Origin: Candidatus Cloacimonadales bacterium
GTDB lineage: Bacteria > Cloacimonadota > Cloacimonadia > Cloacimonadales > JAIOQZ01
Length of the DNA stretch: 64,000 nt
Direction: 5' to 3'
Assembly: GCA_963665815.1 (NCBI GenBank)
Contig: OY762463.1
Location: 256,001 to 320,000, forward strand
Shown here: positions 11,424 to 59,534 of the stretch, in pieces
How the letters are laid out: every line of letters begins with the position of its first letter
How positions within the stretch are numbered: the stretch's first letter is position 1
Program-made: the position numbers and the translations under genes
Notes under the pieces: generated by a model
What the model saw: only the letters and a program-made list of their open reading frames with translations
Databases searched by the model: none
What the model was told of the DNA's origin: nothing

Positions 11424-11531
11424 GTAGAAACTCTTCTTAATCCAATTATGCAATTCATTTATTTAATATCTGTTTCATAATTCGGATATACCTTGCAAAT
11501 CCCAAAATATTTCAAAAGAAAAGGAGAAAAA

Positions 11532-12470
11532 ATGCCAACTAAACATAATTTTCTGGGTCGCAGCATGTTCGATCTGGATACATATAATGCCGATGAAATC
11601 TACTCAATCATGGAAGCATCCAAAGTGATGAAATCTATCAACTTAAGAGACTACAAAAAACTGCCTACACTCAAAGGTAAAACAGTATGTACGCTCTTCT
11701 TCGAAAACTCAACAAGAACCCTGATGTCATTCGAACTTGCTGCAAACCGTCTCAGTGCAGACGTTGTCAGCTTCTCTGCAAAAACATCTTCATTGTCAAA
11801 AGGTGAATCACTTCAGGATACCATATATACACTCAACGCAATGGGTATCGACCTTTACATAATCCGCCACAGCTACCCGGGTTCACCACAACTTGTAAAC
11901 AAGTACTCCGGTAAACCAATTCTTAATGGTGGTGACGGACGTCATGCTCACCCTACTCAGGCTCTGCTGGATATCTTCTCAATCTGGGAAAAACGCGGAC
12001 CGCTCAAAGGTATGAAAGTAACAATAGTCGGCGACATTGCTCACAGCCGTGTTGTACGTTCTAACCTTATCGGAATGAAAACACTCGGTGCGGAAGTAAC
12101 CGTCTGCGGACCAAGAACACTCGTTCCGGGATTCCTCCCTGAAATTTACGGTTGTAAAGTTGAATACGATCTTAAAACTGCTCTCAAAGATGCAGATGTT
12201 GTAATGGGACTCAGAATGCAGATGGAAAGACAGGCTGACGGTCTGTTCCCAAGTCTGGAAGAATACACTAAAAACTATATCCTCTCCAAAGAATCAGTAA
12301 AATGGGCAAAAAAAGACGCTCTTATCATGCACCCGGGACCAATGAATCGCGGTATTGAGATTCTTCCGGAAATCGCAGACAGCTCTAACTCGGTTATTAT
12401 TGAACAGGTTGCAAACGGTGTTGCCGTACGTATGGCTCTGCTGTTCTTAATGCTCGGTGGAAAGTTATAA
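11532..12470 (+). CDS. pyrB: Aspartate carbamoyltransferase catalytic subunit
   Basis: FFENSTRT, KGESL.DT, HPTQALLD, GDIAHSRV.RS, MHPGPMNRG; AAGGAG before ATG 11532. Confidence 0.97.
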   Translation: MPTKHNFLGRSMFDLDTYNADEIYSIMEASKVMKSINLRDYKKLPTLKGKTVCTLFFENSTRTLMSFELAANRLSADVVSFSAKTSSLSKGESLQDTIYTLNAMGIDLYIIRHSYPGSPQLVNKYSGKPILNGGDGRHAHPTQALLDIFSIWEKRGPLKGMKVTIVGDIAHSRVVRSNLIGMKTLGAEVTVCGPRTLVPGFLPEIYGCKVEYDLKTALKDADVVMGLRMQMERQADGLFPSLEEYTKNYILSKESVKWAKKDALIMHPGPMNRGIEILPEIADSSNSVIIEQVANGVAVRMALLFLMLGGKL

Positions 12471-12484
12471 TCAGGAGGTGAAAA

Positions 12485-13753
12485 ATGACTATATTAATTA
12501 AAAACGGAAACGTATTCATAGATGGTAAATTTGTAAAAAAAGACATACTCATAGAAAATGACAAAATCAAAGCTGTAGAAGACTGCATTGAACAGGAAGC
12601 TGAAAAAGTCATCGATGCTGCCGGTAAATTTGTATCTCCGGGTTTCGTTGATCTTCATGCTCACTTGAGAGATCCGGGGCAAACCTACAAAGAAGACATT
12701 GTAACAGGAACAAAATCAGCGGCTAAAGGTGGATTCACCACAATCTGTGCTATGCCAAACACAGATCCTGTTGTAGACAATATTGCAACTGTTGAGTATA
12801 TCCGCAGAAAAGCTCACGATCTTGGTTCATGTAAAGTTGGAGTTATCGGAGCACTGACAAAGAAATCCGAAGGCAAAGAGATTGCAGAAGTTGCTACCAT
12901 GCTTGAAGGTGGAATTGTGGCTGTAAGCGATGATGGTAAATGTGTTCAGAACGCAAAACTTAAGTTCAACGCCATGAAGTATGTATCTGCTTTCAACATA
13001 CCTGTTATTACTCACCCGGAAGATTACAATCTTGCAGGAAGCGGACAGATCAACGCCGGTAAGATGTCCACAAAACTCGGACTTGGCGGAATTCCTGCTC
13101 TGGCAGAAGAAATCATGATTTCCCGCGACATTATGTTTGCTGAGAAAACAAAATGTCACCTCCACATTGCGCATATATCCACAGCAAAATCAATTCAGAT
13201 GGTTAGAGATGCAAAAAAGAATGGTGTTAATATTACTGCTGAAGTAACACCTCACCACCTGGTTCTTAACGAAGAAGCAACAGCGACATTTGACACTAAC
13301 ACCAAGATGAAACCTCCTTTAAGAACAGAGAAAGACAGACTTGCCTGCATCAAAGGTCTTATTGACGGAACAATAGATGCAATTGCAACAGATCATGCTC
13401 CTCATTCTGACTTTGAAAAAGAAAGAGAATACAACATAGCACCATTCGGTATAGTTGGCTTCGAGCATGCTTTTTCTATTCTTTATGATAGACTCGTTTC
13501 GCAAAACATAATCAGTTTTGAAACACTTATAGATAAAATGGCTGTTTCTCCTGCCAGATTCCTCAAACTTAATTCAGGCGAGATCAAAGAAGGAAAAACA
13601 GCAGATATCACAATACTTAACACAGAAGCTGAAACACTTCTCACAAAAGACAATATGCTTTCAAAATCATATAACACACCGTTTATTGATACACCTATGA
13701 AAGGTCTGGTGGAAACCACAATCTGTGATGGGAAAATAACATGGCAGGCGTAA
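12485..13753 (+). CDS. pyrC: Dihydroorotase (type I)
   Basis: DLHAHLRDPG, GGFTT..AMPNT, EVTPHHL, KMKPPLR, ATDHAPH. Confidence 0.96.
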   Translation: MTILIKNGNVFIDGKFVKKDILIENDKIKAVEDCIEQEAEKVIDAAGKFVSPGFVDLHAHLRDPGQTYKEDIVTGTKSAAKGGFTTICAMPNTDPVVDNIATVEYIRRKAHDLGSCKVGVIGALTKKSEGKEIAEVATMLEGGIVAVSDDGKCVQNAKLKFNAMKYVSAFNIPVITHPEDYNLAGSGQINAGKMSTKLGLGGIPALAEEIMISRDIMFAEKTKCHLHIAHISTAKSIQMVRDAKKNGVNITAEVTPHHLVLNEEATATFDTNTKMKPPLRTEKDRLACIKGLIDGTIDAIATDHAPHSDFEKEREYNIAPFGIVGFEHAFSILYDRLVSQNIISFETLIDKMAVSPARFLKLNSGEIKEGKTADITILNTEAETLLTKDNMLSKSYNTPFIDTPMKGLVETTICDGKITWQA

Positions 13754-14496
13754 AGAACGTAATCTGCAAAATTACCGAAAATCAGATTCTCAATGACAGT
13801 TATTTTATTCTGACAGTCAAGAGAAGCAAAGAATTTGGAGAAATCCTACCGGGGCAGTTCTTCGAGATGAGACTTCCGGACGATGAGTATTCTCTGAAAA
13901 TACCAATCAGTGTTTATGATGCTAATCCTTTTATCATCAGATTTATGATCAAGACAATTGGTGGAGGTACTGATTACCTTTCTACACTCGAGGAAGGAAC
14001 TGAACTTGAGATTATGGGACCTCTCGGCAACTCATTCCCAATGGTAGAAGATAAGAATGTTCTGCTTATCAGTGGTGGAATTGGTTATGCACCACTTTAC
14101 TATCTTGAGAATGAACTTTCCAAAAACAACAGCGTACAGTGGATACATGGAGGTAGAAGCGAAGAAGACATCTTTGATGCTGACATGATTGCTACCGATG
14201 ACGGATCCATCGGGCACAAAGGTTTTGTAACAGACCTGATCGATGAAGCTCTTAAAGTTGGTAAACCTGATGTTATATACTGTTGCGGACCTGATATAAT
14301 GATGAAAAACTGCTACAATCTGCTTAAAGATACAGGTATTCCGTTCTATGTTTCACTCGAAGAATACATGGCGTGCGGAATAGGGGTCTGTTATGGTTGC
14401 GTTGTTAAAATCAAAGAAGGTGACGAAGCTGTGTTCAAAACTGTCTGCAAAGACGGACCGATCTTTGATGCTTCAAAGGTGGTATGGGATGATTAA
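13741..14496 (+). CDS. pyrK: Dihydroorotate dehydrogenase electron transfer subunit
   Basis: PGQF, GPLGNSF, GGIGYAP, CGP..MM, EEYMACGIGVCYGC, VCKDGPIF. Confidence 0.94.
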   Translation: MAGVKNVICKITENQILNDSYFILTVKRSKEFGEILPGQFFEMRLPDDEYSLKIPISVYDANPFIIRFMIKTIGGGTDYLSTLEEGTELEIMGPLGNSFPMVEDKNVLLISGGIGYAPLYYLENELSKNNSVQWIHGGRSEEDIFDADMIATDDGSIGHKGFVTDLIDEALKVGKPDVIYCCGPDIMMKNCYNLLKDTGIPFYVSLEEYMACGIGVCYGCVVKIKEGDEAVFKTVCKDGPIFDASKVVWDD

Positions 14497-15394
14497 AACA
14501 AAACTTGGTAAACTCCATCTTGATAATCCTGTAACTGTTGCCTCCGGAACATTTGGAAAGGAATTTGGTGATCTTATAGATCTGAACAGACTTGGTGCTA
14601 TTGTCACCAAGACCATTACAATGGAACCTAAAGCCGGAAATCCTACTCCAAGGCTGTATGAAACAGAAGCGGGACTGCTGAACTCAATAGGACTTCAGAA
14701 TCCGGGATTGAAAAGCTTTATGCAGGATGTACTTCCTGAGTACGAAAAAATAGATTCTCCTTTACTTGTCAGTTTTTCAGGATCAACCACAGATGAATTC
14801 TGTAAAATGGTGGAGGAAATGGAATCTTCAGATGTAATTAAGGGCTATGAAGTTAATGTATCCTGTCCTAATGTGGAAAACGAAGGAATAGCTTTCGGGA
14901 CAGATCCGGAAGTTGTAAATAAACTTACAAAAGCACTTTCAGAAAGAACAGACAAAGAACTTATAATAAAACTTACTCCAAATGTCACAAATATCATGGA
15001 AATTGCCAAAGCAGCAGAGGAAGGTGGGGCAGATAGTCTTGCACTGATTAACACACTTCTCGGTATGGCAATAGACTGGGAAACGGGTAAAACCAGAATT
15101 GCCAGAGGTATTTCCGGATATTCAGGTATTGCAATCAAACCTGTTGCCCTTCAGAATGTATACAGAGTTCATAAAGCTGTGAATATACCTATTCTCGCTA
15201 TGGGGGGAATATTCAACTGGCAGGATGCAATGGAATTTTTCTATGCCGGAGCAAGTGCAATTGCAGTAGGAACAGCGAACTTTGTTAACCCGGAAGCCAC
15301 AATATCAATAATAGACTCACTGACAAGATACTTTGACAAAAATGATATAATACTGGAAAATGTCATTGGAAAAGTATCAGGAATAAGAAGTTAA
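14489..15394 (+). CDS. pyrD: Dihydroorotate dehydrogenase class 1B catalytic subunit
   Basis: ASGTFG, TKT, GNPTPR, NSIGLQNPG, NVSCPN, KLTPN, INT; start at ATG 14489 overlaps the pyrK stop. Confidence 0.95.
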   Translation: MIKTKLGKLHLDNPVTVASGTFGKEFGDLIDLNRLGAIVTKTITMEPKAGNPTPRLYETEAGLLNSIGLQNPGLKSFMQDVLPEYEKIDSPLLVSFSGSTTDEFCKMVEEMESSDVIKGYEVNVSCPNVENEGIAFGTDPEVVNKLTKALSERTDKELIIKLTPNVTNIMEIAKAAEEGGADSLALINTLLGMAIDWETGKTRIARGISGYSGIAIKPVALQNVYRVHKAVNIPILAMGGIFNWQDAMEFFYAGASAIAVGTANFVNPEATISIIDSLTRYFDKNDIILENVIGKVSGIRS

Positions 15395-15413
15395 CATTTA
15401 ACCGGAGATTTAC

Positions 15414-15962
15414 ATGGAAGAAAAAAAATATATAATGGATCAGGAATCAATCAACAGGGCACTTAAAAGAATGGCTCATGAACTTCTCGAACAGAACAGA
15501 AATCACGAAAATCTTTATCTGGTAGGAATCCGTTCTCGCGGCGTACCTATGGCAAACAGAATTGCTTCTTATTTAAGCCAGATTGAAAACATAGACATCC
15601 CTGTCGGTGTACTCGACATTACTTTGTACCGAGATGATCTTTCAACCATATCACACCAGCCTGTAATTAAAGGATCAGACATCGGTTTTGATATCGAAGG
15701 CAAAAATATTGTACTGGTTGATGACGTACTATATACAGGAAGAACAGTAAGAGCTGCCTTTGATGCAATTCTTGACTTTGGACGCCCACAGAAGATTCAA
15801 CTTTGTGTACTTGTAGACAGAGGTCACAGAGAGCTTCCGATTAAAGCTAATTATGTTGGAAAAAACATTCCTACATCAGCAGAAGAAATAATCAAAGTGT
15901 GTTTTGATGAAACTGATGGAGAAGATTCAGTAAGAATCATGGTCAAAAAGCAAAAGGACTAA
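15414..15962 (+). CDS. pyrR: Bifunctional pyr operon regulator / uracil phosphoribosyltransferase
   Basis: [43 protein letters not shown]. Confidence 0.97.
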
Positions 15963-15967
15963 TATTT

Positions 15968-16756
15968 ATGACATTTTTCGAAAAATATAATAAATCACGT
16001 GTAAAAAATGCTTCTTATGTATGTGTCGGACTGGATTCCGATATTACTAAGCTACCTGAAGCTGTGAAGAACGAGAAAAACCCTATATTGACATTCAACA
16101 AAGCTATAATTGATGCAACTAAAGACTTTGTTGTATCCTATAAACCTAACCTTGCATTTTACCTTTCAGCAGGAAAAATGGGACTTGATGCGTTATTTGA
16201 AACTTTTGCATATATTCCATCAGATATTCCTGTGATTCTTGATGCTAAATTCGGAGACATCGGCAACACAATGTTCCAATACGGTAAATTCGCATTTGAA
16301 CAGGTAAAAGCCGATGCCCTGACAGTCAATCCGCTTATGGGAGAAGATGTTGACAAGTCCATAGAAAGCTTTGAAGGAAAAATGAAATTCCTCCTCTGTC
16401 TCACATCAAATCCGGGAGCAAAAGACTATCTTATGCCTAATGAGCTGTATACTAAAATCGCTGCTGCTATTGGTGGAAAGAAAGATCTTGGAGCTGTTGT
16501 CGGTGGAACAAACTCTGAACAGCTGGAAAAAGTAAGATCTCTCATGCCTGAAACGATATTCCTTATTCCTGGGATAGGTGCCCAGGGTGGTAATCTTGAA
16601 CTTGTATGCCAGAAAGCTGCTGCATCAAAAGATGATGCGAGATTTGTTATTAACTCTTCACGAGGAATAATCTTTGCAGATTCATCTGTAGACTTTGCAG
16701 AAACTGCAGCAAAGAAAGCGGATGAGCTTCGTAAAGCTATAAATGAAAATCTGTAG
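15968..16756 (+). CDS. pyrF: Orotidine-5'-phosphate decarboxylase (type 2)
   Basis: CVGLD, YKPNLAFY, DAKFGDIGNT, LTSNPG, PGIGAQGG, NSSRGI. Confidence 0.96.
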   Translation: MTFFEKYNKSRVKNASYVCVGLDSDITKLPEAVKNEKNPILTFNKAIIDATKDFVVSYKPNLAFYLSAGKMGLDALFETFAYIPSDIPVILDAKFGDIGNTMFQYGKFAFEQVKADALTVNPLMGEDVDKSIESFEGKMKFLLCLTSNPGAKDYLMPNELYTKIAAAIGGKKDLGAVVGGTNSEQLEKVRSLMPETIFLIPGIGAQGGNLELVCQKAAASKDDARFVINSSRGIIFADSSVDFAETAAKKADELRKAINENL

Positions 16757-20446: not shown

Positions 20447-20474
20447 TTGACTATATGCATAATACTTTTAGAAT
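20447..20474 (+). promoter_or_regulatory. Sigma70 promoter predicting a leaderless transcript at ATG 20481
   Basis: TTGACT-16 nt-TAGAAT, then 6 nt, then ATG; no SD. Confidence 0.6.
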
Positions 20475-20480
20475 ATTAGC

Positions 20481-21665
20481 ATGGAAAAATATTTTTTTAG
20501 ATGTATTAATTGCGGAAAGAGCTTTCATGATGTAAATTTCATGTATACATGTCCGGAATGCTATGAATCAAGATTTGATCAACCTCCCAAAGGTTATCTG
20601 AAAATGGAGTACAAGTATTCGGAAATCAGTGAAAAGCACTCATGTATTGATAAAGAACTACTTCTGGATCTACTGCCGTTAAAATCTCTGGCAAGCTTAC
20701 CTACACTTAACGTTGGCAATACTCCTTTGTATGACATTACTCACAATCTGAGTTTATCTGATAATAACTGTAGATTGTATGCAAAAGATGATTCACAGAA
20801 TCCGACATTCTCATATAAAGACAGAGCTTCTGCACTTGTTTCTGCTTTTGCTAAAGAGCAGGGAATAGATTCAATTGTGGCTGCTTCTACAGGAAATGCC
20901 GGATCGTCAATTGCAGGGATTTGTGCTAACCAGAACCAGAAAGCTATTGTTTTCGTTCCGGCATCTGCACCGGAAGCCAAATTAACTCAGATTAACCTTT
21001 ATGGTGCAGAATTAATAAGAGTAAATGGTACATACGATCAGGCATTTGATGAGAGCTTGAGGTATTCTGAGAAAACCGGTTGCTTTAACAGAAATACAGG
21101 ATATAATCCACTCACTGTAGAAGGTAAGAAAACTGCTGCTTTTGAACTGGTTGCCGAATTGGAATCCATAGACAGAATTTTTGTACCTGTTGGTGATGGT
21201 GTTATTATTTCAGGTGTTTTCAAAGGCTTTGAAGATTTGATTAAATGTGGGATGGCGAAGAAAATTCCTGAGATTATTGCAGTACAGTCAATTCAAAGCA
21301 GTAATCTTGTAAATAATCTTAGCTCAGATCAGTTTAACTCAGAGGAATGCACGACTGTCGCAGATTCAATATCAGTAGCCATTCCCAGAAACTTTTATAT
21401 GGCAAGGGATTATATAAACAGGTACAATTGCAGAACTGTATTGGTCTCTGATTCGGAAATCTTAGATGCATCCGCAGAGTTATGCAGAAAAACAGGTCTT
21501 TTCAGTGAGCCGGCCGGAGCATCATCCTATGCCGGATTCAAGAGGTACTGTGAATTATATGACAATTCAGGTGTGAACGTTATATTATTGACAGGAAGCG
21601 GTCTGAAGGATATAAAGACAATGCAGAGATATTTAAATCAACAAAAAGAAGGTATAAATGAGTAG
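20481..21665 (+). CDS. Threonine synthase-like PLP enzyme (fold type II)
   Basis: N-terminal CxxC...CxxC; NPTFSYKDR (PLP Lys), ASTGNAG, VPVGDG, EPAGA, LLTGSGLKD. Confidence 0.85.
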   Translation: MEKYFFRCINCGKSFHDVNFMYTCPECYESRFDQPPKGYLKMEYKYSEISEKHSCIDKELLLDLLPLKSLASLPTLNVGNTPLYDITHNLSLSDNNCRLYAKDDSQNPTFSYKDRASALVSAFAKEQGIDSIVAASTGNAGSSIAGICANQNQKAIVFVPASAPEAKLTQINLYGAELIRVNGTYDQAFDESLRYSEKTGCFNRNTGYNPLTVEGKKTAAFELVAELESIDRIFVPVGDGVIISGVFKGFEDLIKCGMAKKIPEIIAVQSIQSSNLVNNLSSDQFNSEECTTVADSISVAIPRNFYMARDYINRYNCRTVLVSDSEILDASAELCRKTGLFSEPAGASSYAGFKRYCELYDNSGVNVILLTGSGLKDIKTMQRYLNQQKEGINE

Positions 21666-23811
21666 TATTCTCAGAGTAGATGGAATAAGAAAACTCGAAG
21701 GTAAAACAAAATATGTAGATGACTATACTTTCCCTGCTATGCTTCACGGAGCTGTAATCTGCTCGACAATTCATAAGGGAAAGATTATTAAAATACAATA
21801 TCCTAATCAATTAAATCCGAGTGATTTCGTAATATGTTCAGCCAGCGATATTCCTGGAATGAATGTTGTGCCTGAACCTGTATCAGATGGTGTTTTCCTC
21901 ACTGATGGAGAAGTAAGATATTTGGGGCAGCCCATACTTTGTGCTGCACATGCAGATAAACAGATGCTTCATGAATTTATCAGAGATACAAAAATTGTAT
22001 ATGAAGAATACAGTGAAGAGCTTGCCTGCACAAATTACAAAAAGTGTCTTGAGAATGAGGCCAATGCATTTGGTAGAGCAATTGAGATTGATCATGGTAA
22101 AAAGCACGATATAGATGATTCCTGGGTTCATTTGAAGAAGATATACTTTACCCCACATCAGGAACAGGCTTATCTTGAAACTCAGGGAATGATTGCCAGT
22201 TATAATAAAGCCAGCGGAACAATGAATATTCTGGGATCAATGCAATGTCCGTATTTCGTGAAAGATGCAGTAGAACAGATTATGGGAGATGCTGTTTCAG
22301 AAGTAGTGGTTGAAGTAGCTGAAGGTGTAGGCGGTGCATTTGGAGGGAAGGAGGATTTCCCAAACAATATTGCGGGGTTTGCTGCTCTGCTCAGTTACAA
22401 ATCACATTGTCCTGTGAAGATAGTTTTAGATAGAAATCAGGATATGATGATTACAACCAAAAGACATCCATCCAGAATCGAAATTGATTCTTATGTTGAT
22501 CCTGAAACAAAGAAGATAAAAAAGATGTCTATAGATTACAGGCTTGATGCAGGATGTTTCCAGACGTTATCTCCTGTCGTGCTGTCTCGTGGTGTGTTAC
22601 ATGCATCAGGTGTATATGCTTGTGATGATGTGTACATTCTTGGTAGGTTGTTCAGATCGAATACTCCGCCTAATGGTGCATTCAGAGGTTTTGGTGCTCC
22701 TCAGGCAATATTCGCTGTTGAAAGCCATATTGAAGACCTTGCAGAGATGCTGAATGTTTCACCTGTAGAATTCCGAGAGTTGAATCTCCTTACTGATAAT
22801 GACAAACTTCCTTCAACACAGATGGTTGACACTTCACCCTTGTATGAATGCTGGAATGAATTGCTTAGTGAATCTGATTTCAGAGCAAAATACAAAGAAT
22901 TCGAGGACTGGAACAAGTCTCATAAGATAAAAAAGGGGATTGGACTTTCTCTGACTTATCATGGTGGAGGTTACACGGGTAATGGAGAAAAGGTTTTGGC
23001 ATCTGAAGTAAAAATTACTCTCACAGCAGATAGTTCTGTCGAAGTTTTTGTTTCCAATGTTGATATGGGACAGGGTTGCAGTACAACTCTGGCTCAGAGA
23101 GTTGCAGAAGGTTTGCAGTACCCTGTTGAAAAAGTTATTGTCAATACCCCGGACACAAGTAAAACACCGAATTCCGGTCCTACAGTTGCTTCCAGAACAA
23201 TCTATGTTGTAGGAAAAATCCTGTTTGATCTGGCAAAAGACATCAGAAATCAAGTTGGTGATATAGAAACATATTTTAATACTGGGAAAGCACTTCCTGT
23301 TGAGTTTAAAGGTAAGTTTGCTCCTGATCCTACAGTTGTATTTGATGAAGATACATATAAAGGAACAGGTTACAGAGATTACTCCTGGGCAGCCTGTGCA
23401 GTAGAAGTCACATATGATCCGGTTTTGTTTACTATCAAAGTTGATAAAATATGGAATGTACTGGATATCGGTAAAGTAGTGAATCCTTCAATTGCAGAAG
23501 GACAGGTCGCCGGAGCTGTTGTACAGGGAATTGGCTATGGAACAACTGAGATTACATATAAACCCGGAATTGGTAAAACTGCCGGACTTTCAAACTATGT
23601 TGTCCCAATAATTCAGGATGCACCGGACATACACATTAAATTTGTGAATACAGATTGTGATATTGCAAAGGGTCTTGGAGAAATTCCAATGAATTATCCT
23701 GCTCCGGCAGTGAGAAATGCCCTTAAACATGCTACGGGTATAACTCTTGATGAAATACCTCTGCTTCCTGAACTGATTTTTGATGAATGGAGTAAAAATG
23801 AAAACAAATAA
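21658..23811 (+). CDS. Xanthine dehydrogenase family molybdopterin-binding subunit
   Basis: QAYLE, GGAFGGK, TKRHP, AFRGFGAPQ, DMGQG, GPTVASR, EGQVAG, KGLGE. Confidence 0.93.
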   Translation: MSSILRVDGIRKLEGKTKYVDDYTFPAMLHGAVICSTIHKGKIIKIQYPNQLNPSDFVICSASDIPGMNVVPEPVSDGVFLTDGEVRYLGQPILCAAHADKQMLHEFIRDTKIVYEEYSEELACTNYKKCLENEANAFGRAIEIDHGKKHDIDDSWVHLKKIYFTPHQEQAYLETQGMIASYNKASGTMNILGSMQCPYFVKDAVEQIMGDAVSEVVVEVAEGVGGAFGGKEDFPNNIAGFAALLSYKSHCPVKIVLDRNQDMMITTKRHPSRIEIDSYVDPETKKIKKMSIDYRLDAGCFQTLSPVVLSRGVLHASGVYACDDVYILGRLFRSNTPPNGAFRGFGAPQAIFAVESHIEDLAEMLNVSPVEFRELNLLTDNDKLPSTQMVDTSPLYECWNELLSESDFRAKYKEFEDWNKSHKIKKGIGLSLTYHGGGYTGNGEKVLASEVKITLTADSSVEVFVSNVDMGQGCSTTLAQRVAEGLQYPVEKVIVNTPDTSKTPNSGPTVASRTIYVVGKILFDLAKDIRNQVGDIETYFNTGKALPVEFKGKFAPDPTVVFDEDTYKGTGYRDYSWAACAVEVTYDPVLFTIKVDKIWNVLDIGKVVNPSIAEGQVAGAVVQGIGYGTTEITYKPGIGKTAGLSNYVVPIIQDAPDIHIKFVNTDCDIAKGLGEIPMNYPAPAVRNALKHATGITLDEIPLLPELIFDEWSKNENK

Positions 23812-24280
23812 AATCTTTGTTAAGTTTAAACTTAATAACAATAAAACCAGGATAGAAGTTGATCCACTGAAACGTGTTCTGGATTTGCTAAGAGATGATT
23901 TTGATTTGAAATCACTAAAAGAAGGATGCGGTGAAGGTGAATGCGGAGCCTGTACCATACTGCTTAATGGAAAACCTGTTACAAGTTGTATATTCAGAGC
24001 AGGTCAACTTGAGAGTACGGAAGTACTAACTCTGGAAGGAATCAGAGAATCTGAGCTGGGAAAGATTATTATTGAAGCTTTTCATAACAATAATGCTGTA
24101 CAATGCGGATTTTGTTTCCCCGGATTTCTCATGACTACTTACGCATATATTCTGTCAGGTGGAGATACACGGCAGGATAATATTAAAAGAGCTCTGGCAG
24201 GGAATATCTGCCGTTGCACAGGTTATGACAAGATTATTAAATCTGTTATTGATGCAATCAATACTTATTGCCAGAAGTAA
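23798..24280 (+). CDS. Xdh-family (2Fe-2S)-binding subunit
   Basis: KEGCGEGECGACT, QCGFCFPG, GNICRCTGY. Confidence 0.95.
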   Translation: MKTNKIFVKFKLNNNKTRIEVDPLKRVLDLLRDDFDLKSLKEGCGEGECGACTILLNGKPVTSCIFRAGQLESTEVLTLEGIRESELGKIIIEAFHNNNAVQCGFCFPGFLMTTYAYILSGGDTRQDNIKRALAGNICRCTGYDKIIKSVIDAINTYCQK

Positions 24281-24289
24281 GGATAAACT

Positions 24290-25126
24290 ATGAACCATAA
24301 AACACATATTGTAACAGACCTTACCGAATTACTTACATTGATTAGCTCAGACACCAAACCCTGGTTCGTTGCCGGTGGAACTGATATAAGTCTGAACATT
24401 TCAAGAAATCAACTTCCGAAGAATTCTGATATATATTTTATCAGTGGAATAAAATGCTTGAAAAGTATTACGAAAAGCAATGGATATATAAAAATAGGAG
24501 CTCTAAGTTCAATCACTGATATTCTGGAGTCTTCAATTATTAATGAAAGTCTTCCATTTCTCAGGGAGGCTCTTAAAGATTTTGCTTCAGCACAGATCAG
24601 AAATGTTGCAACACTTACGGGAAATATTGCCAATGGTTCCCCCACTGCTGATACAATACCTATACTGCTTGTTCTTGAGGCGGAGCTTCTCTTAAGTTCT
24701 AACAAAGGCTCCAGAGTCGTATCACTCTCTGATTTCTTTACAGATTACAAAACGAATGTACTTGAGAATAATGAGGTTATTACCGAGATACTCATTCCGG
24801 ATAAAAATAAGAATTCTGAACTGTTCAGCTATAAAGTCGGCAATAGATCAGCTCTGACAATCGCAAAAGTAAACATTGCAATATTGAAGGGAGAAGTAGT
24901 AAAAATTGCTGCAGGAAGTGTTAATAGTTATCCTATAAGACTTTTTTCTCTAGAGAAACTGATAATCGAAAAAGGTATTGAAAGGTTGACAACACAGGAT
25001 ATAGAAAATGAATTGGCAAATCTGATAACACCAATAACCGACTTCAGATCAACTTCAGAATACAGATATACTGTTACAAGGAACCTTATATGCAGTACAT
25101 TAGATTCCATAAAGCAAAACTCCTGA
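24290..25126 (+). CDS. Xdh-family FAD-binding subunit
   Basis: AGGTD, QIRNVATLTGNIANGSPTAD, PITDFRSTSEYR. Confidence 0.93.
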   Translation: MNHKTHIVTDLTELLTLISSDTKPWFVAGGTDISLNISRNQLPKNSDIYFISGIKCLKSITKSNGYIKIGALSSITDILESSIINESLPFLREALKDFASAQIRNVATLTGNIANGSPTADTIPILLVLEAELLLSSNKGSRVVSLSDFFTDYKTNVLENNEVITEILIPDKNKNSELFSYKVGNRSALTIAKVNIAILKGEVVKIAAGSVNSYPIRLFSLEKLIIEKGIERLTTQDIENELANLITPITDFRSTSEYRYTVTRNLICSTLDSIKQNS

Positions 25127-25695
25127 TAGTTTTTTGCATAGCTTTATTTGGATGTGGTCCGGCTTTGTCCACATTTCAATCAGATTCACTTCGTTTATAT
25201 AAAGGAAACGGGTATCAAGTTTCATATCCTGTTTCCGCAAGAGTCAGAACAGAGCTTGCTAACACGGATGCTCGAGATGAACTTCATATAGAAGGAGCAC
25301 AGATAACAATTGAAGGCAGGCGTGTACCTTCTTTTGATCTCGTTATAAGAACTTACAAGAACAGAAACAGTAAAGGACTAAACAGGTGGATTTACGACTA
25401 TTATGAGAAGAAGTGGCAGCAGACAAGGAATCTGCTTAGTCCTCCGACTCTTCCTGTTGACATGCATGGAAATCTCTCCAGTAATTATGTAAGTGATACA
25501 ACTGTTGGCCCATACAAGGCTATCGTTGTGAATACACCTGATATAAAATACATTACGAGAACATTTTACGTGTGTAACAACAAAATAGTATATGCAATTG
25601 AATATAAAGATTTCGAGCTGGCATACAATCCTCTTGCAGATGTACAGCTTAGTATTTATTCCTTAATACTTAACACTTTTCAATTAACTCAGTAA
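25090..25695 (+). CDS. Hypothetical lipoprotein (possibly PsbP/Mog1-like fold)
   Basis: Lipobox LFGC; Y.VSYP near the N-terminus and ILNTF at the C-terminus; start uncertain (overlaps the upstream gene). Confidence 0.55.
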   Translation: MQYIRFHKAKLLIVFCIALFGCGPALSTFQSDSLRLYKGNGYQVSYPVSARVRTELANTDARDELHIEGAQITIEGRRVPSFDLVIRTYKNRNSKGLNRWIYDYYEKKWQQTRNLLSPPTLPVDMHGNLSSNYVSDTTVGPYKAIVVNTPDIKYITRTFYVCNNKIVYAIEYKDFELAYNPLADVQLSIYSLILNTFQLTQ

Positions 25696-25714
25696 ACATT
25701 CCGGGGAGATAAAA

Positions 25715-26803
25715 ATGGCAGATTTAAAATGCAGTTTATGGGGACATGAACTTAAAAATCCAATTATGCCTGCAGCGGGACCTAATTGTGTAGACGGTAA
25801 AATGCTTATTGCCGCATCAAGAGGTGGTGCAGGTGGACTTGTAATGAAAACAATATCTGTTGAACCTGCCAGAATACCTTACCCGAATATAAAACGAGTT
25901 AATAAAGATACCCTGATGAATGCCGAATTATGGTCTGAATATCCATATCAACAGTATTTAGATAAAGAATATGAGCTGGCTAAATCAACAGGACAATTTC
26001 TGATGGCAAGTATAGGCTATAGTGCTGATGAACTAAGTTTTCTGGGACCTCTCGTTGAGAAAACAGGCTTTGTAGATGCAATTGAATTCTCAGTGCATTA
26101 TGTTGGTAAGGATTATGCCACTGTTGTAGAAAATGCCAGAGCACTTAAGGAATCTGTTTCTCTACCGGTTCTGGTGAAAGTATCTCCCGGATTTCCCGAT
26201 ATTCCTGCATTCGTAAAGGCTATTGAACCTTATGTAGATGGTTTTATAGCAATTAACAGTGTTGGACCCGGATTGGATTTTGATCCGGTAACCCTTAAAC
26301 CTCTGATGGGCTCTGAAAATGGTTATGGGTATGTTTCAGGCAGGTCTATTTTCCCGATAGCTTTGCAGATTGTACATGAAATCTCTTTAAACACAGATAA
26401 ACCGATCATTGGAGTCGGAGGTATTTACTCAGGGCTGGAAGCAGTAAAAATGATGATGGCAGGTGCATCAGCCGTACAAGTATGCAGTATAATTATTGAA
26501 GAAGGACATTCAGCTTATTCCCGTATTGCAAAAGAAATGTCTGACTGGCTTGATAAAAACAGTTACAGCAGTGTGAATGAAATCGTTGGATTGTATTCTA
26601 AACAGCAGAATAATGCAGTTATGGAACGACCTTCAATGAGTATTGATTCTGATAAGTGTATCAGATGCGGAAAATGCATAAAGACATGTCTGCATCATGG
26701 TCTGAGTACAGGGGAGAAGCTGTTGCCAAAGTTTAATGAGAACTGTATTCAGTGTGGATTTTGCCAGAGTATCTGTCCTGTTAATGCTATTATAATGGAT
26801 TAA
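25715..26803 (+). CDS. PreA/dihydroorotate dehydrogenase-like FMN protein with C-terminal 2x[4Fe-4S] domain
   Basis: LKNPIMPAAGP, VMKT, NAEL, VKVSP, INS, GVGGI, AGASAVQVC; CxxCxxCxxxC twice; SCP replaced by SVH. Confidence 0.82.
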   Translation: MADLKCSLWGHELKNPIMPAAGPNCVDGKMLIAASRGGAGGLVMKTISVEPARIPYPNIKRVNKDTLMNAELWSEYPYQQYLDKEYELAKSTGQFLMASIGYSADELSFLGPLVEKTGFVDAIEFSVHYVGKDYATVVENARALKESVSLPVLVKVSPGFPDIPAFVKAIEPYVDGFIAINSVGPGLDFDPVTLKPLMGSENGYGYVSGRSIFPIALQIVHEISLNTDKPIIGVGGIYSGLEAVKMMMAGASAVQVCSIIIEEGHSAYSRIAKEMSDWLDKNSYSSVNEIVGLYSKQQNNAVMERPSMSIDSDKCIRCGKCIKTCLHHGLSTGEKLLPKFNENCIQCGFCQSICPVNAIIMD

Positions 26804-27260: not shown

Positions 27261-28961
27261 ATGAAAAAAATAATATTAGCTATTTCAATATATATCGTAC
27301 TTGCATCAGCGTTTGCATGTACAATAGGAGCAGCGTCCGGTATTGCTACCGAAGACGGTCGTCCAATGATTTGGAAAACAAGAGACAGGTCGGGACATGA
27401 AGATAACTTTATCATAATGGATACATCAGGATTGTACCGTTGCGTTTACGTAACAGACGTAGGAAAACCTGATGCCTGGATGGGACTTAATGAAACAGGG
27501 TTCTGTATAATGAACTCAACTTCGAACGATCTCACAGGTTTGAGACTATGGGGAGAAGGCGATCTCATGTATGAAGCTCTTAAACATTGTTCAACGGTTG
27601 ATGATTTCCAGATTTTTCTTGAAAATACTGTTGGTATACGAAGTGTTGCAGCGAACTTTGGTGTTATGGATGCCCAGGGGGGAGCAGCAATATTTGAGAC
27701 AAGCAGTGATCATTACTGGCGTTACGATGCAGAAGCAAGTGAAAACGGCTACGTTCTGAGGACAAACCATTCAGAGCAGGGTGGAAGTACATACGGGAGA
27801 ACAAGGTTGCAGCGCTCGCATGAGCTTATAGGCAACATGTATAATACTAATACTCTCAACTATAAAAATGTGCTGCAGGTGCAGATGAGGGATTTTATGG
27901 ATGATAATCAGGATGGAGTACCGGTTCCTTATGAGGGATTCTGGGAGTCCGGTATGCCCTATGGTTTTGTTGATATATATGGAAGCATATGTGGAAGAGT
28001 AACAGTTTCTACGGCTGTTTTTCATGGTGTTAGAGATGGGGAAGATCCGCTTTTGACAACTATGTGGACAATGCTTGGGCATCCTTCGTCAACCATTGCA
28101 TTCCCGATCTGGGCAGTTGATCCACCCGATAAAGTTACCGGTGAATACAGTTCTCCAATATGCACAAAAGCAAGAGAAATCAAACCACAACTTTTCAGAG
28201 ATGGAGTTTATTCGGACAGGCACATTGATACTTACCTCTTAAGAAATGATTCCGGTACAGGCATCTGGGACGTTTTCTTTGATGCAGAAGACAGAATATT
28301 CTCTCAGACAGATTCAATTCTCTCAGTATGGAGAGACAATGGATTTACTACTTCTGAACTCTATGACTTCAGCAGTAGTATGACCGAGTATGCTTACAGT
28401 GTAATGGATTCTCTTCAGATTAACAGATCAGCAGTAGTTAAGTTTTCATCTGATAAGCTGTCTGGGTTAGCTCCATTGAAAGTCCGATTCGCAGATGAAT
28501 CACTGCACAATCCTACAGATTGGTACTGGGATTTCGACAATGATGGTAATTATGAAGCGTACAGCAAAAATCCTGAATGGACATTTAATACACCCGGAAC
28601 TTATTCTGTCAGACTGACAGTTAATAACATTGAAGGTATTTCAACCTATACAGCCGATAGTCTAATAACTGTTTTTGATTCCGGTATAATACCTGAAATT
28701 CACTTAAGTCCTAATCCGTTCAGTAAGGATGTAATTTTTAATATTAAACTACCCGATCCTTCGTATGCAAAAATAAGGATTTATAATCTGAAAGGTCAGA
28801 AAGTACATGGATTTATGTTGGAAAATGACATTCTTGATGAGATAAATTACTTGTGGGATGGTACAGATTCAAATAATATTCAGGTTGCTTCAGGGATTTA
28901 TCTTTACAAAATTGAAACGATTTCTAAAATTTTCACTGGTAAAATAATAAGAATAAAGTAA
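27261..28961 (+). CDS. Secreted Ntn-hydrolase (C45/C69-like) with PKD domain and FlgD-Ig/T9SS-like C-terminal domain
   Basis: Signal peptide ending AFA, then CT.....G..T.DGRP++WK.RD, MGLNE.G; PKD WYWDFDNDG..NP.W.F..PGTYSVRL; SPNPF...YNLKGQKV...WDG..SGIY. Confidence 0.82.
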   Translation: MKKIILAISIYIVLASAFACTIGAASGIATEDGRPMIWKTRDRSGHEDNFIIMDTSGLYRCVYVTDVGKPDAWMGLNETGFCIMNSTSNDLTGLRLWGEGDLMYEALKHCSTVDDFQIFLENTVGIRSVAANFGVMDAQGGAAIFETSSDHYWRYDAEASENGYVLRTNHSEQGGSTYGRTRLQRSHELIGNMYNTNTLNYKNVLQVQMRDFMDDNQDGVPVPYEGFWESGMPYGFVDIYGSICGRVTVSTAVFHGVRDGEDPLLTTMWTMLGHPSSTIAFPIWAVDPPDKVTGEYSSPICTKAREIKPQLFRDGVYSDRHIDTYLLRNDSGTGIWDVFFDAEDRIFSQTDSILSVWRDNGFTTSELYDFSSSMTEYAYSVMDSLQINRSAVVKFSSDKLSGLAPLKVRFADESLHNPTDWYWDFDNDGNYEAYSKNPEWTFNTPGTYSVRLTVNNIEGISTYTADSLITVFDSGIIPEIHLSPNPFSKDVIFNIKLPDPSYAKIRIYNLKGQKVHGFMLENDILDEINYLWDGTDSNNIQVASGIYLYKIETISKIFTGKIIRIK

Positions 28962-30551: not shown

Positions 30552-31844
30552 ATGAATCTTTTCAATCACCTTAAAGGTGTATTGATTCAGCTTCAAATAC
30601 TTTACTTCGACATGGCTTCTTATCTTCTCTTTGGCTTAATTGTTGTCGGAGTTCTTCATTTATTTTTTAAACGAGAACTTATACTCAGATTTCTTGGCGG
30701 AAATCATTACAAAGCATCAGTAAATGCTTGTTTGTTAGGAGTACCTTTACCATTGTGCTCCTGTGGAGTAATCCCTACAAGTGTTTATCTGTCAAAAAAC
30801 GGAGCATCCAAAAGTGCAGTACTTGCCTTTCTGGTTTCTACTCCGCAGACAGGTGTAGACAGTATTATGGCTACATTTGGAACCCTTGGGCCTGTATTTG
30901 CAGTATTCAGACCTTTTGCTGCCTTTATTATGGGGGTGGTGACAGGTATTTTTACAGAACTTTTCAACCGAAAGGATGATGTAATATTTGATTCTGATGA
31001 ACCTGAAACTTGCTCTGGTGATTCTTGCAATGGTGAATCCTGTTCAACGGAACATCACGAGGAAAAGCCGGTAAACAGATTCAAGTACATGATGAATTAT
31101 GCTTTTGGTGAGTTTCTGGATGATATATCTATCCATTTTATTGTTGGATTAATAATTGCAGCATTGATCTCATTTTACATTCCGGATAACTTTTTTGCAG
31201 AGACATCTATAAATTCAGGTTTACTGGGAATGATTGTTGTAATTCTTATAGGTGTGCCTATGTATATCTGTGCTACCAGCTCAATACCTATTGCAGTAGC
31301 CTTAATAATGAAAGGATTTTCACCCGGAGTAGCTTTTGTTTTTCTTACGGTAGGTCCAGCTACAAATGCAGCGACAATAGCAATTTTATTCAAGGCAATA
31401 GGAAAAAAGAACACATTGATTTATCTGGCTTCCATAATAGCCGGTTCAGTAATCTTTGCCTTGCTTTTCGATTTATTCTTAAACACATTTGATATCTCAG
31501 TTAAAGAAGTTGTGCATCAACATTATCATGAAGCTGGCAATAATGTCATTAAGGTAATTGGTGGAATTGTATTCGGACTTCTTCTATTGAGATCTGTTTA
31601 TACAAACCTAAAACACAGATTTTCACGGAAAGAGGTAAAAGTGGAAGAAAAAGCTAAAACAATTGTTGTACACGGAATGTCCTGTAATCATTGTGCAAAG
31701 ACTGTGCAGGATGCTGTAATGAAATTACACAATGTTAAAGATGTGCAGGTTGATCTACAACATAATCATGTACATGTTGATGGCGATGTTGACCTGAAAG
31801 AAGTCAAAAATGCAATCGAAAGTGCAGGATATACAACTGAATAA
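30552..31844 (+). CDS. SO_0444/ArsP-type metal permease with C-terminal HMA domain
   Basis: PLCSCGVIP, STPQTGVDS, PMYICATSSIP, GPATN; Cys/His loop; GMSCNHC. Confidence 0.88.
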   Translation: MNLFNHLKGVLIQLQILYFDMASYLLFGLIVVGVLHLFFKRELILRFLGGNHYKASVNACLLGVPLPLCSCGVIPTSVYLSKNGASKSAVLAFLVSTPQTGVDSIMATFGTLGPVFAVFRPFAAFIMGVVTGIFTELFNRKDDVIFDSDEPETCSGDSCNGESCSTEHHEEKPVNRFKYMMNYAFGEFLDDISIHFIVGLIIAALISFYIPDNFFAETSINSGLLGMIVVILIGVPMYICATSSIPIAVALIMKGFSPGVAFVFLTVGPATNAATIAILFKAIGKKNTLIYLASIIAGSVIFALLFDLFLNTFDISVKEVVHQHYHEAGNNVIKVIGGIVFGLLLLRSVYTNLKHRFSRKEVKVEEKAKTIVVHGMSCNHCAKTVQDAVMKLHNVKDVQVDLQHNHVHVDGDVDLKEVKNAIESAGYTTE

Positions 31845-45768: not shown

Positions 45769-46004
45769 GAATTCCTCCTTTTGTTTTTGCCATTCTCTTT
45801 GAATTCAGTCGGTTTTGTAAAGATAATTAAATGTTTAACTCCCATTAAAATGATTTTTCATTGACGAAGGAGCTTATAAAAGAAATTTGTCCATTCTTTA
45901 TAAACTGCTTATACTTACTAAGTAGTCGTATTTAAAAATAAACCGTTCAAATCGAATGAAAAGTATAAATGGAAAATTAAGTGACTAAACGAAAGGATAT
46001 TGAT

Positions 46005-47264
46005 ATGCCAGATAAATTTAAAACACAGGTTAATTCTGAAATTGGTGAACTGAAAGGTGTAATCTTACATACACCGGGACCGGAAATTGAGAATATGAAT
46101 CCGGAAAATGCCGAAAGGGCTTTGTATAGCGATATTCTTAATCTTGCCGTTGCTTCTAAGGAGTATGTACAGTTAAAGGAAGTGCTTGGAAAAACAGCCA
46201 GAACTTTTGAAGTAGAAGACCTTCTTAAGAACATTCTATATAACGAGAAAGTAAAACAAGATCTGGTAAAGAAGATTTGTGTTAATGAAAATGCTGAAAA
46301 TATTATAAATGACCTTTTAAGTATGAAGCCAGAAGATTTATCTAAAAGTCTGCTTCGTGGTGTACCTATGAAGAAGAATAATCTTACTAAATTCCTGAGT
46401 AAGGAATCTTATACATTAAAACCTCTGCATAACTTCTTTTTTACAAGAGATGCTTCGATGTCTGTAAGAAATCGTGTTTTGATTGGTAGAATGAAAAGCA
46501 ATATCAGAGAACGAGAATCGCTTATTATGGAGGCAATATTCGATTATAACTCCTATTTCAGTACAAAAACAGTCAACCCGGTCAATGACCCTGTTTTTGC
46601 CGGAACTGCCACAATTGAAGGGGGAGATGTTCTTGTAGCGAGAAAGGATATTCTCTGTATTGGTATTGGAGACAGAACTAACTCTCAAGGTGTAGATTTT
46701 ATCATTGAGCAACTCAAATCGAGAAAAGAAAAAAGACATTTGATTATACAGGAGCTGCCAAAAACTCCTGAGTCATTCATTCACCTCGATATGGTTTTCA
46801 CATTCCTTGATAAAGATGCCTGCATGGTATATAAGCCTCTGATTCTAAGACCAAACAGATTCCAGACAGTTCATATTGAGATAGATAATGGCAAAGTGGT
46901 TTCAATCAAAGAAAAAGAAAACCTGCTTTCAGTACTGAAAGAACTGGGTATGGACCTTAAACCTGTTCTCTGTGGTGGAGATAATGATGTCAGGATTCAG
47001 GAAAGAGAACAATGGCATTCCGGAGCAAATTTCTTTGCGATAGCTCCTGGCAAAGTTATTGGCTATGGAAGAAATGTTTATACTATAGAAGAAATGGCTA
47101 AAAACGGTTTTGAAGTAATTAAAGCTAAAGATATAATTAAGAATAAAGCGGATATTAAAAAAGCTAAAAAATGTGTTATAACAATTGATGGCTCTGAACT
47201 TTCCAGAGGCGGTGGCGGATGTCGCTGCATGACTATGCCGATAGTCAGAGCGGATGTTAAATAG
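46005..47264 (+). CDS. arcA: Arginine deiminase
   Basis: VNSEIGELK.V++H.PG.E, FFTRD, IEGGD, HLDMVF, REQW, GSELSRGGGGCRCMTMP. Confidence 0.93.
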   Translation: MPDKFKTQVNSEIGELKGVILHTPGPEIENMNPENAERALYSDILNLAVASKEYVQLKEVLGKTARTFEVEDLLKNILYNEKVKQDLVKKICVNENAENIINDLLSMKPEDLSKSLLRGVPMKKNNLTKFLSKESYTLKPLHNFFFTRDASMSVRNRVLIGRMKSNIRERESLIMEAIFDYNSYFSTKTVNPVNDPVFAGTATIEGGDVLVARKDILCIGIGDRTNSQGVDFIIEQLKSRKEKRHLIIQELPKTPESFIHLDMVFTFLDKDACMVYKPLILRPNRFQTVHIEIDNGKVVSIKEKENLLSVLKELGMDLKPVLCGGDNDVRIQEREQWHSGANFFAIAPGKVIGYGRNVYTIEEMAKNGFEVIKAKDIIKNKADIKKAKKCVITIDGSELSRGGGGCRCMTMPIVRADVK

Positions 47265-57425: not shown

Positions 57426-57446
57426 TTCTCCCCCTATTCAGGCTAT

Positions 57447-58454: not shown

Positions 58455-58474
58455 AGTACCTCCATGAAATAAAA

Positions 58475-59512: not shown

Positions 59513-59534
59513 ATTACCTCCTGTTATGAAAATA

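Follow-up and report, generated by a model that had tools for sequence, protein, structure and literature searches.

A six-gene cluster in a Cloacimonadales genome

The stretch of DNA analysed here (the window) comprises 64,000 nt of contig OY762463.1 (assembly GCA_963665815.1, positions 256,001-320,000) from a Candidatus Cloacimonadales genome, G000, which is assembled into one contig of 3.96 Mb and is 98.66% complete. Our subject is a cluster of six genes on its + strand that may be one module of a dispersed pathway for reductive urate degradation; feature coordinates are in window numbering. The first gene (20481-21665) encodes a 394-amino-acid (aa) fold-type II pyridoxal phosphate (PLP) enzyme resembling threonine synthase, ThrC (Pfam family PALP, E = 1.8e-63, 215 bits). 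The second (21658-23811) encodes the 717-aa molybdopterin (Mo) subunit of an Xdh-family enzyme (three Mo-hydroxylase domains, PF01315, PF02738 and PF20256, whose E values, in descending order of strength, are 6.5e-60, 2.9e-52 and 1.9e-10). It is followed by a 166-aa [2Fe-2S] (FeS) subunit at 23780-24280, read from a TTG whose next codon is ATG (Fer2_2 and 2Fe-2S, E = 2e-23 for PF01799), and by a 278-aa flavin (FAD)-binding subunit at 24290-25126 (FAD_binding_5, PF00941, with CO_deh_flav_C, PF03450; E = 3.1e-42). All three subunits were thus recognised by Pfam, which bears out the Xdh trio reported in an initial annotation of this DNA. A 201-aa lipoprotein-like open reading frame (ORF) at 25090-25695 matches no Pfam or NCBIfam family. 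The last gene, at 25715-26803, encodes a 362-aa PreA/PydA-like protein with a DHO_dh barrel (E = 3.9e-29, 102 bits) plus Fer4 families for two C-terminal [4Fe-4S] clusters. Because every curated NCBIfam equivalog model scores below its cut-off, none of the five recognisable proteins is a standard member of its family.

Genes one and two overlap by 8 nt and genes two and three by 32 nt; after a 9-nt gap, genes four and five overlap by 37 nt, and 19 nt separate the fifth from the sixth. At the first junction, where the ThrC-like stop meets the Mo-subunit start, the sequence is ATGAGTAG. The ORF list and these junctions confirm the arrangement described in the initial annotation, six genes in one orientation that overlap or lie close together, but the single promoter that it placed before all six could not be shown. 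Promoter-like hexamers (TTGACT-16-TAGAAT, 10/12 positions matching) do occur on the + strand at 20447-20474, 7 nt before the start codon region of the ThrC-like gene, but in the promoter scan such matches were not enriched over shuffled sequences (24 found versus 25.3 expected). Moreover, the gene upstream lies on the same strand, ends 70 nt before the ThrC-like gene and is part of a long run of + strand genes. A terminator scan found no terminator-like site 3' of 26803, and the first ORF after the cluster begins at 27261.

The ThrC-like protein departs from threonine synthases

Membership of the ThrC family was judged by curated hidden Markov model cut-offs, pocket residues and gene context. 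The protein scored below all ThrC equivalog cut-offs: 151.3 bits versus 167.1 for TIGR00260, 175.9 versus 301 for PRK06450, 173.5 versus 421 for PRK05638, and 167.6 versus 303 for PRK08197. In three printed alignments, the motifs ASTGNT, NP[YH]R and PVGNAGN of three solved ThrCs align to ASTGNA, NPLT and PVGDG, the Thr, Arg and Asn common to those enzymes being replaced by A140, T212 and D239. In the T. thermophilus ThrC structures, the Thr and Arg bind the substrate phosphate. The three replacement residues were invariant in 120/120 closest homologues and were kept in all 14 distinct relatives compared (17 loci, 3 of them duplicates). We also searched representatives of a library of 1.84 billion proteins, clustered at 50% identity, and obtained 585 matches at E<1e-30. 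Among the best 150 representatives, 103 of the 120 full-length sequences (query included) combine Ala, a residue other than Arg, and Asp; only 2 have Arg. The Schiff-base lysine K113 is invariant, and the PLP lysine motif S-x-K-D-R is retained.

An AlphaFold2 (AF2) model of the protein (pLDDT 94.2) has class-I ThrCs as its nearest solved folds, followed by threonine deaminases, serine racemases and serine dehydratases; DpaL was not among the listed fold matches. In a protein-cluster atlas, only generic 'threonine synthase family' clusters were matched. Compared directly with the class-I ThrCs of Bacillus subtilis (6CGQ/6NMX), Aquifex aeolicus (2ZSJ), Thermus thermophilus (1UIM) and Mycobacterium tuberculosis (2D1F), the window protein has the same fold (TM scores of 0.70-0.87, 29-34% identity), but it differs by its below-cut-off scores, by the exchange of Thr, Arg and Asn for Ala, Thr and Asp, by an additional N-terminal zinc-ribbon of the CxxC...CxxC type, and by its occurrence in a genome with no threonine pathway. 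Neither is it a member of the YgeX/DpaL family (TIGR03528), the diaminopropionate lyases of anaerobic purine degradation, for which it scored 24.4 bits against a cut-off of 532.25; with Escherichia coli YgeX it shares 21% identity over 129 aa. The ThrC-like protein and YgeX/DpaL share PLP fold type II, their place in the gene cluster and, as we propose below, the reaction; any activity that they have in common would have arisen independently within the fold. Elimination chemistry on a ThrC scaffold is plausible, since a cyanobacterial ThrC relative is reported to deaminate threonine (PMC12172450).

The pathway that would feed a threonine synthase was looked for across the genome. TIGR00260 found only the ThrC-like gene in G000 (151.6 bits, below its cut-off), and no class-II ThrC N-domain was found there. 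Homoserine dehydrogenase (PF00742) was not found in G000 by a search that was positive in 14/14 control genomes, nor was homoserine kinase of either type (TIGR02535, no match; TIGR00191, best GHMP match 32.9 bits). A threonine synthase would therefore have no substrate pathway in this genome. The same holds more widely: among 41 genomes of the same order (G000 included; being related, they are not independent samples), one has homoserine dehydrogenase and 32 have the ThrC-like gene. The order as a whole seems to be incapable of deriving threonine or methionine from aspartate. The initial annotation had remarked that the 'threonine synthase' overlaps the Mo-subunit gene and has no threonine-pathway genes beside it; the overlap is real, and homoserine dehydrogenase and kinase were not found anywhere in the genome. 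As to its question whether a separate thrABC exists, the answer cuts both ways: the ThrC-like protein is the only ThrC homologue of the genome, yet the enzymes that should precede it were not found. Judged from sequence, the ThrC-like enzyme is not a threonine synthase, and that label is wrong.

The cluster is linked to genes of reductive urate degradation

The reductive urate (2,8-dioxopurine) pathway was characterised in 2025 (Li et al., PMC12507026; Liu et al., bioRxiv 10.1101/2025.04.24.650524). As described in these papers, XdhD reduces urate to 2,8-dioxopurine, which is dearomatised by YgfK or, in Clostridioides difficile, by UacX; SsnA and HyuA open the rings, YgeW and YgeY remove ureido groups, and YgeX converts diaminopropionate to pyruvate. 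The intermediates are (R)-configured (Liu et al.).

Across the order, the ThrC-like gene keeps close company with Xdh: both were present in 32 of the 41 genomes and neither in 8, one genome had Xdh only, and none had the ThrC-like gene only. A Mo-subunit gene lies within 7 kb of the ThrC-like gene on the same contig in 27/32 carriers; the five unlinked carriers are G002, G010, G016 and G034, assemblies of 290 to 460 contigs, and G013, of 60 contigs. An orthologous Mo subunit (51-89% identity) directly follows the ThrC-like gene in 12 genomes, namely 7/8 of family f1, to which G000 belongs, and 5/5 of family f11.

The operons of certain relatives place both genes amid the urate pathway. In G031, the order is guaD, xdhA, xdhB, a GltD/PreA fusion, ssnA, ygeY, a 285-aa unknown, the ThrC-like gene, a hydantoinase-like gene, Mo, FeS, ygeW and a CysK-like gene. 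In G025, an Xdh (Mo+FAD) gene is followed by FeS, ssnA, ygfK (1331 bits), ygeY, ygeW, a 490-aa CysK-like gene, the ThrC-like gene and the window-type Mo, FeS and FAD genes; G035 is alike. The 285-aa protein encoded between ygeY and the ThrC-like gene in G031 (L014:11011-11868) belongs to no family and has a 31% identical homologue in G000 (C1:1016423-1017229). In the f1 relative G005, an IS3-family transposase lies directly upstream of the ThrC-like gene (L017:10733-11980), which fits a module that moved away from the rest of the pathway.

An independent sample came from metagenomes, where 80 loci were fetched with an alignment of the clade, 42 of them at least 6 kb long. A pathway-type neighbour was found in 39/42 of these long loci: a CysK-like gene in 32, Mo in 25, YgfK in 25, FeS in 22, a carbamoyltransferase in 20, SsnA in 16, YgeY in 16 and a hydantoinase in 7. 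The direct same-strand upstream neighbour was CysK-like in 18 and a carbamoyltransferase resembling ornithine carbamoyltransferase (OTC) in 7 of 54 informative flanks; directly downstream, 55 informative flanks held Xdh FeS or Mo in 20 cases and CysK-like in 11. A single-protein search of genome contigs with the ThrC-like protein returned one locus, in a sister genome. Linkage to xdh, whose loss the initial annotation had named as speaking against its own proposal, is thus kept in 27/32 relatives and in 25/42 long metagenome loci. The companion genes that it had named were also found, ssnA, ygeY, ygeW and hyuA-type genes in the same operon in relatives, and ssnA-, ygeY- and hyuA-type genes elsewhere in G000.

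Two Xdh-type enzymes and a solo candidate ring reductase

Each subunit of the window trio scored below the xanthine dehydrogenase (XDH) equivalogs: the Mo subunit with 325 bits versus 849.5 for xanthine_xdhB (TIGR02965) and 323.7 versus 780 for a second model, the 2Fe-2S subunit with 157 bits versus 217 for XdhC_XDHase, and the FAD subunit with 163.8 bits versus 310 for XdhB_XDHase. The best solved relatives of the Mo subunit are bovine XDH/xanthine oxidase (214 bits) and Rhodobacter capsulatus XDH (167 bits). The GGKE (FGGKE), LSRG and AFRGFG motifs of bovine xanthine oxidoreductase (XOR) align in the window protein, the equivalent of Glu1261 lying outside the aligned range. We take the Glu of GGKE and the Arg of LSRG to be the purine-pocket residues of XOR (bovine numbering). 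The window enzyme differs from these two relatives by its identity of only about 25-30% and by its split into three subunits.

The Mo subunits of the order fall into three groups: the window type (52-56% identity within the group), a 1057-aa type (43-53%) and classical XdhB. Identity between the groups, and to E. coli XdhA or XdhD, is 25-30%. We attempted to tell the two Xdhs of G000 apart by their similarity to E. coli XdhA versus XdhD, which does not distinguish them. The 1057-aa enzyme of G000 lies beside an ssnA-like gene, as xdhD does in E. coli, and is for that reason the better candidate for the urate-reducing enzyme; this would leave the window trio as the better candidate for XDH. C. 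difficile XdhD was likewise assigned by gene proximity, at 25.6% identity (Li et al., PMC12507026), and Clostridium sporogenes also uses two Xdh-type enzymes (PMC12507026; bioRxiv 10.1101/2025.04.24.650524).

The PreA-like protein of the window scored 161 bits against the cut-off of 335 for PreA and has no FAD/NAD(P)H domain in Pfam. It is not the housekeeping dihydroorotate dehydrogenase, because a complete pyrB-pyrC-pyrK-pyrD-pyrR-pyrF set lies upstream at 11493-16756 (+), with the pyrK-pyrD pair at 13741-15394. Two cell-wall genes, for a LysM protein and an SLT/M23 protein, stand between that set and the cluster. Orthologues of the PreA-like protein (53-92% identity) occur only in family f1 and always in this cluster. 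YgfK, on the other hand, exceeded its cut-off in 6/41 genomes, four of the five f11 genomes plus G010 and G011, and in none of f1. In f1 only the GltD-like part of the YgfK model matches, a part that also matches in genomes without the pathway, and E. coli and G025 YgfK queries on G000 likewise met the GltD-like part only. Other families carry an 820-835-aa GltD-PreA fusion. A split pair of GltD-like and PreA-like genes, a fourth candidate form of the reductase, was seen at G010:C218:2358-4736 and G033:C9:10279-12649.

This alternation of a solo PreA-like protein with YgfK matches the published alternation of YgfK and UacX. According to Li et al. (PMC12507026), UacX of C. difficile is a PydA-like PF01180 protein with no FAD domain that replaces YgfK. 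Compared by this published description only, the window protein is like it in having a DHO_dh barrel and Fe-S clusters and no FAD/NAD(P)H domain, and in both organisms YgfK would have undergone a lineage-specific replacement; the C. difficile variant keeps YgeX, unlike G000.

The rest of the proposed pathway is dispersed in G000

Candidates for most of the other steps lie elsewhere in the genome. The 471-478 kb region of G000 holds an SsnA-like gene, a gene for a 207-aa unknown, the 1057-aa Mo+FAD Xdh (473-476 kb), an FeS subunit and a hydantoinase/allantoinase-like gene. YgeY is encoded at 2.996 Mb (497 bits versus a cut-off of 321), and a 489-aa CysK-like protein and an OTC-like carbamoyltransferase at 1.620-1.624 Mb. 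The latter is not of the YgeW type (225 bits versus 453), and its orthologues (49-66% identical) occur in 12/80 metagenome loci, in most of them just upstream of the ThrC-like gene. Carbamate kinase (371.6 bits versus 358.25), guanine deaminase (guaD) and SelD are present as well. The gene set for the reductive urate pathway in G000 thus consists of YgeY and carbamate kinase over their cut-offs, and of SsnA-like, hydantoinase-like, OTC-like, two Xdh and PreA-like proteins that fall below cut-off or are of another subtype; YgeX was not found.

Compared with the uricolytic cluster of E. coli K-12 (ygeW-ygeX-ygeY-hyuA-yqeA ... mocA-ygfK-ssnA-ygfM-xdhD), G000 has the same families: Xdh-type Mo hydroxylases, a flavin/Fe-S reductase, SsnA, a hydantoinase, a carbamoyltransferase, YgeY and carbamate kinase. 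Both have a PLP enzyme of fold type II, and the G000 homologues are 29-49% identical to their E. coli counterparts. G000 differs in having neither YgeX nor a full YgfK, in its ThrC-like PLP enzyme and the addition of a CysK-like one, in an OTC-like carbamoyltransferase, and in the spread of the genes over at least five loci. The catabolic context that the initial annotation ascribed to the operon is therefore upheld, but the six genes are one module rather than a whole pathway, the other genes lying elsewhere in G000. Of the purine, pyrimidine and pyridine variants that it had entertained, the operons with ssnA, ygeY, ygeW and ygfK favour purine or urate and not the other two; and the pathway can no longer be called uncharacterised, as it was there, now that reductive urate degradation has been described.

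A candidate for the terminal lyase step

The enzyme that should complete the pathway is the one that G000 appears to have exchanged. The DpaL model reached at least 279 bits in 3/41 genomes (G031, G026 and G010), never over its cut-off of 532.25 and never in G000. No homologue of E. coli YgeX above 60 bits was found in G000, and no DpaL orthologue was found in G000 or in the 80 metagenome loci with the DpaL-like protein of G031 as query. The weak matches that the DpaL model gave elsewhere fall only on the ThrC-like gene (29 genomes), none on the CysK-like gene.

The reading that we favour, with moderate confidence, is that the window contributes one module to a dispersed variant of the reductive urate (2,8-dioxopurine) pathway, and that the ThrC-like enzyme carries out the last PLP lyase step of this variant, alone or in partnership. 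It starts from what was observed directly in gene content, in the lack of a threonine pathway or DpaL, in the altered pocket residues and in the conserved linkage, and from these we infer every substrate and every reaction that follows. The Mo/FeS/FAD trio would be a purine hydroxylase, most likely an XDH that feeds hypoxanthine and xanthine to urate, and the second Xdh, beside the SsnA-like and hydantoinase-like genes, would convert urate to 2,8-dioxopurine. The PreA-like Fe-S flavoprotein would act as a UacX-type reductase, drawing on a low-potential electron carrier to dearomatise 2,8-dioxopurine in place of YgfK. The SsnA-like, hydantoinase-like and OTC-like proteins, YgeY and carbamate kinase, all encoded elsewhere, would then open the rings and take off the two ureido groups. 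Finally, the ThrC-like enzyme, acting alone or with the unlinked CysK-like PLP enzyme, would perform an alpha,beta-elimination on 2,3-diaminopropionate or a mono-ureido precursor to yield pyruvate and ammonia, the YgeX/DpaL step of E. coli.

Several observations weigh against this proposal. In 29 genomes there are two candidates for the PLP enzyme, one ThrC-like and one CysK-like; G031 and G026, moreover, have not only both of these but also, at another place, a DpaL-like gene (about 505 bits), so the ThrC-like gene is not strictly a substitute for DpaL. Against E. coli XdhA and XdhD, both Xdhs of G000 reach 25-28% identity, and their assignment as XDH versus DOPDH, the urate-reducing enzyme, is by synteny only. 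The SsnA-like protein (305 bits versus 444) and the hydantoinase-like protein of G000 are below curated cut-offs, and the window has, at 45981-47264 (+), a gene for arginine deiminase (PF02274, 2e-62), so that the OTC-like enzyme and carbamate kinase could also, or alternatively, take part in arginine fermentation by the arginine deiminase pathway. The known reductive urate pathway needs the selenium-cofactor proteins YqeB and YqeC (PMC12507026; bioRxiv 10.1101/2025.04.24.650524). In G000 the YqeB model had no match and E. coli YqeC none above 60 bits; only the N-terminal, XdhC-like part of E. coli YqeB was matched. Lastly, 3/42 long metagenome loci have no pathway neighbour: L028, where the neighbours are unrelated, L094, with a MobA-like transferase, and L066. 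No threonine genes were found among the scanned ORFs of these three.

Alternative explanations

The idea of the initial annotation that the ThrC-like enzyme stands in for DpaL gains from the missed ThrC cut-offs, the changed pocket and the failure to find DpaL in G000, but the CysK-like enzyme competes for the role. It may be the real substitute for YgeX, while the ThrC-like enzyme does another late step, for example the racemisation of (R)-configured diaminopropionate or ureido-amino acid, or the release of albizziin's ureido group by beta-elimination. Co-occurrence is close: the CysK-like gene is present in 30/41 genomes, 29 of which have both PLP genes, 3 genomes have the ThrC-like gene alone, 1 has the CysK-like gene alone and 8 have neither, the four genomes with a single PLP gene all being assemblies of at least 140 contigs. 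The CysK-like gene is also the commonest neighbour in the long metagenome loci, is directly adjacent to the ThrC-like gene in 29 informative flanks, and is the more conserved of the two across families (54-73% versus 38-57% identity). Racemisation would suit the (R)-configured intermediates described by Liu et al., and serine racemases are among the fold matches of the ThrC-like protein. In f11 and f12 the two genes sit side by side or within a single cluster; throughout f1 (8 genomes, G000 among them), however, their best matches are far apart or on different contigs, and there it is the ThrC-like gene that stays joined to the Xdh operon. Against the CysK-like enzyme also stands the failure of the DpaL model to touch it in any genome. 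YgeX may have been replaced by the ThrC-like enzyme, the CysK-like enzyme or both. We provisionally rank the ThrC-like enzyme first because its anion pocket is remodelled (Arg to Thr, Asn to Asp) and because it is the sole protein touched by the DpaL model, and consider it rather unlikely, though a serious contender, that the CysK-like enzyme is the real substitute and the ThrC-like enzyme does a different late step.

Much less probable is a role of the ThrC-like protein in maturation of the Mo hydroxylase, for instance as a C-S or C-Se lyase that provides its terminal sulfido or selenido ligand. Such a role would account for the overlap of the ThrC-like stop with the Mo-subunit start and for the failure to find YqeB/YqeC, the known enzymes needing Se; the 8-nt overlap, the position directly upstream of an orthologous Mo subunit in 12 genomes and the 20/55 downstream flanks with Xdh FeS or Mo all agree with it. 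Known molybdenum cofactor sulfurases, however, use fold-type I, NifS-like PLP domains. Four metagenome loci (L062, L068, L071 and L074) carry ygeY, a carbamoyltransferase and the ThrC-like and CysK-like genes with no Mo-subunit match in the locus, and the vacant YgeX step would still require an enzyme.

We give slightly less credence still to the possibility that the six genes by themselves make up a pathway for a different N-heterocycle, such as a pyrimidine or nicotinate, with no relation to urate. The window Mo subunit does form a group of its own, 25-30% identical to the other Xdh groups, the f1 module is apart from ssnA and hyuA, and PreA-type enzymes reduce uracil according to the 2025 urate pathway papers. 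The six-gene module lacks a ring-opening amidohydrolase, however, and in f11 the ThrC-like and Mo/FeS/FAD genes form the end of one operon with ssnA, ygfK, ygeY and ygeW. The Glu and Arg motifs of XOR, which we presume to bind purine, are also retained in the window Mo subunit. That the protein is an ordinary threonine synthase, as its status as sole ThrC homologue in G000, its nearness to class-I ThrCs in sequence and fold and the public names of its relatives ('threonine synthase') might suggest, is very improbable given that neither homoserine dehydrogenase nor homoserine kinase was found, that every ThrC cut-off was missed, that the pocket residues are changed clade-wide and that the context is purine catabolism.

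Implications for the 'threonine synthase' clade

Our preferred reading, the ThrC-like enzyme as a terminal lyase of urate degradation, may reach beyond this genome. We suggest, tentatively and with somewhat less conviction than for the window itself, that the 'threonine synthase' clade that bears the Asp and lacks the Arg (585 clusters at E<1e-30, clustered at 50% identity) is an unrecognised PLP family which, with or without a CysK-like partner, performs the final C-N cleavage when most lineages other than the enterobacterial and clostridial models degrade urate anaerobically. The substrate of the clade enzyme (D-diaminopropionate or a ureido-amino acid) or its mechanism may differ from that of YgeX. 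Published surveys would miss such a variant: that of Liu et al. (bioRxiv 10.1101/2025.04.24.650524) set a minimum of 50% identity to C. sporogenes YgeX, and that of Li et al. (PMC12507026) counted any PF00291 protein as YgeX, which hides a replacement. In these two papers (preprints and the published version of Li et al.), neither threonine synthase, ThrC nor any word beginning with Bacteroid is mentioned, and none of the papers that we searched has both 'threonine synthase' and 'dioxopurine'.

If the proposal is true, an order known for amino-acid and propionate fermentation, and lacking threonine synthesis, would be a purine or urate fermenter. The anaerobic urate pathway, solved in 2025, is studied as a route to lower urate in gout. 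Should the ThrC-like enzyme do its last step, a large 'threonine synthase' family would be mis-named, distorting predictions of amino-acid auxotrophy; urate degraders would be wider than reported, reaching Cloacimonadales-type and Bacteroidota anaerobes; and a new PLP lyase would be at hand for engineering.

The lipoprotein-like ORF and surrounding genes

The 201-aa ORF between the FAD and PreA-like genes has, as read from its translation, a signal peptide ending in the cysteine-containing motif LFGC, which makes the lipoprotein label of the initial annotation plausible. It is kept at 83% identity and in the same place in the sister genome G001, is missing from the G005 counterpart of the cluster, in which nothing separates the FAD gene from the PreA-like gene, and has no second copy that we could find in G000. 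It is probably a genus-specific insert and not a core part of the pathway.

Other genes of the window are of separate interest. A C45-like/PKD protein with a type IX secretion system (T9SS) sorting domain (27261-28961, +) and a 1716-aa C25 peptidase of the gingipain family (38696-43846, +) suggest secreted proteolysis through the type IX system. At 30552-31844 (+), an SO_0444-family Cu/Zn efflux permease (361 bits, cut-off 300) carries a heavy-metal-associated domain fused at its C-terminus. On the - strand (55499-60572), five ORFs of 298-345 aa stand in tandem; two of them match the DUF5128 six-bladed beta-propeller family, and the group looks like a paralogous array.

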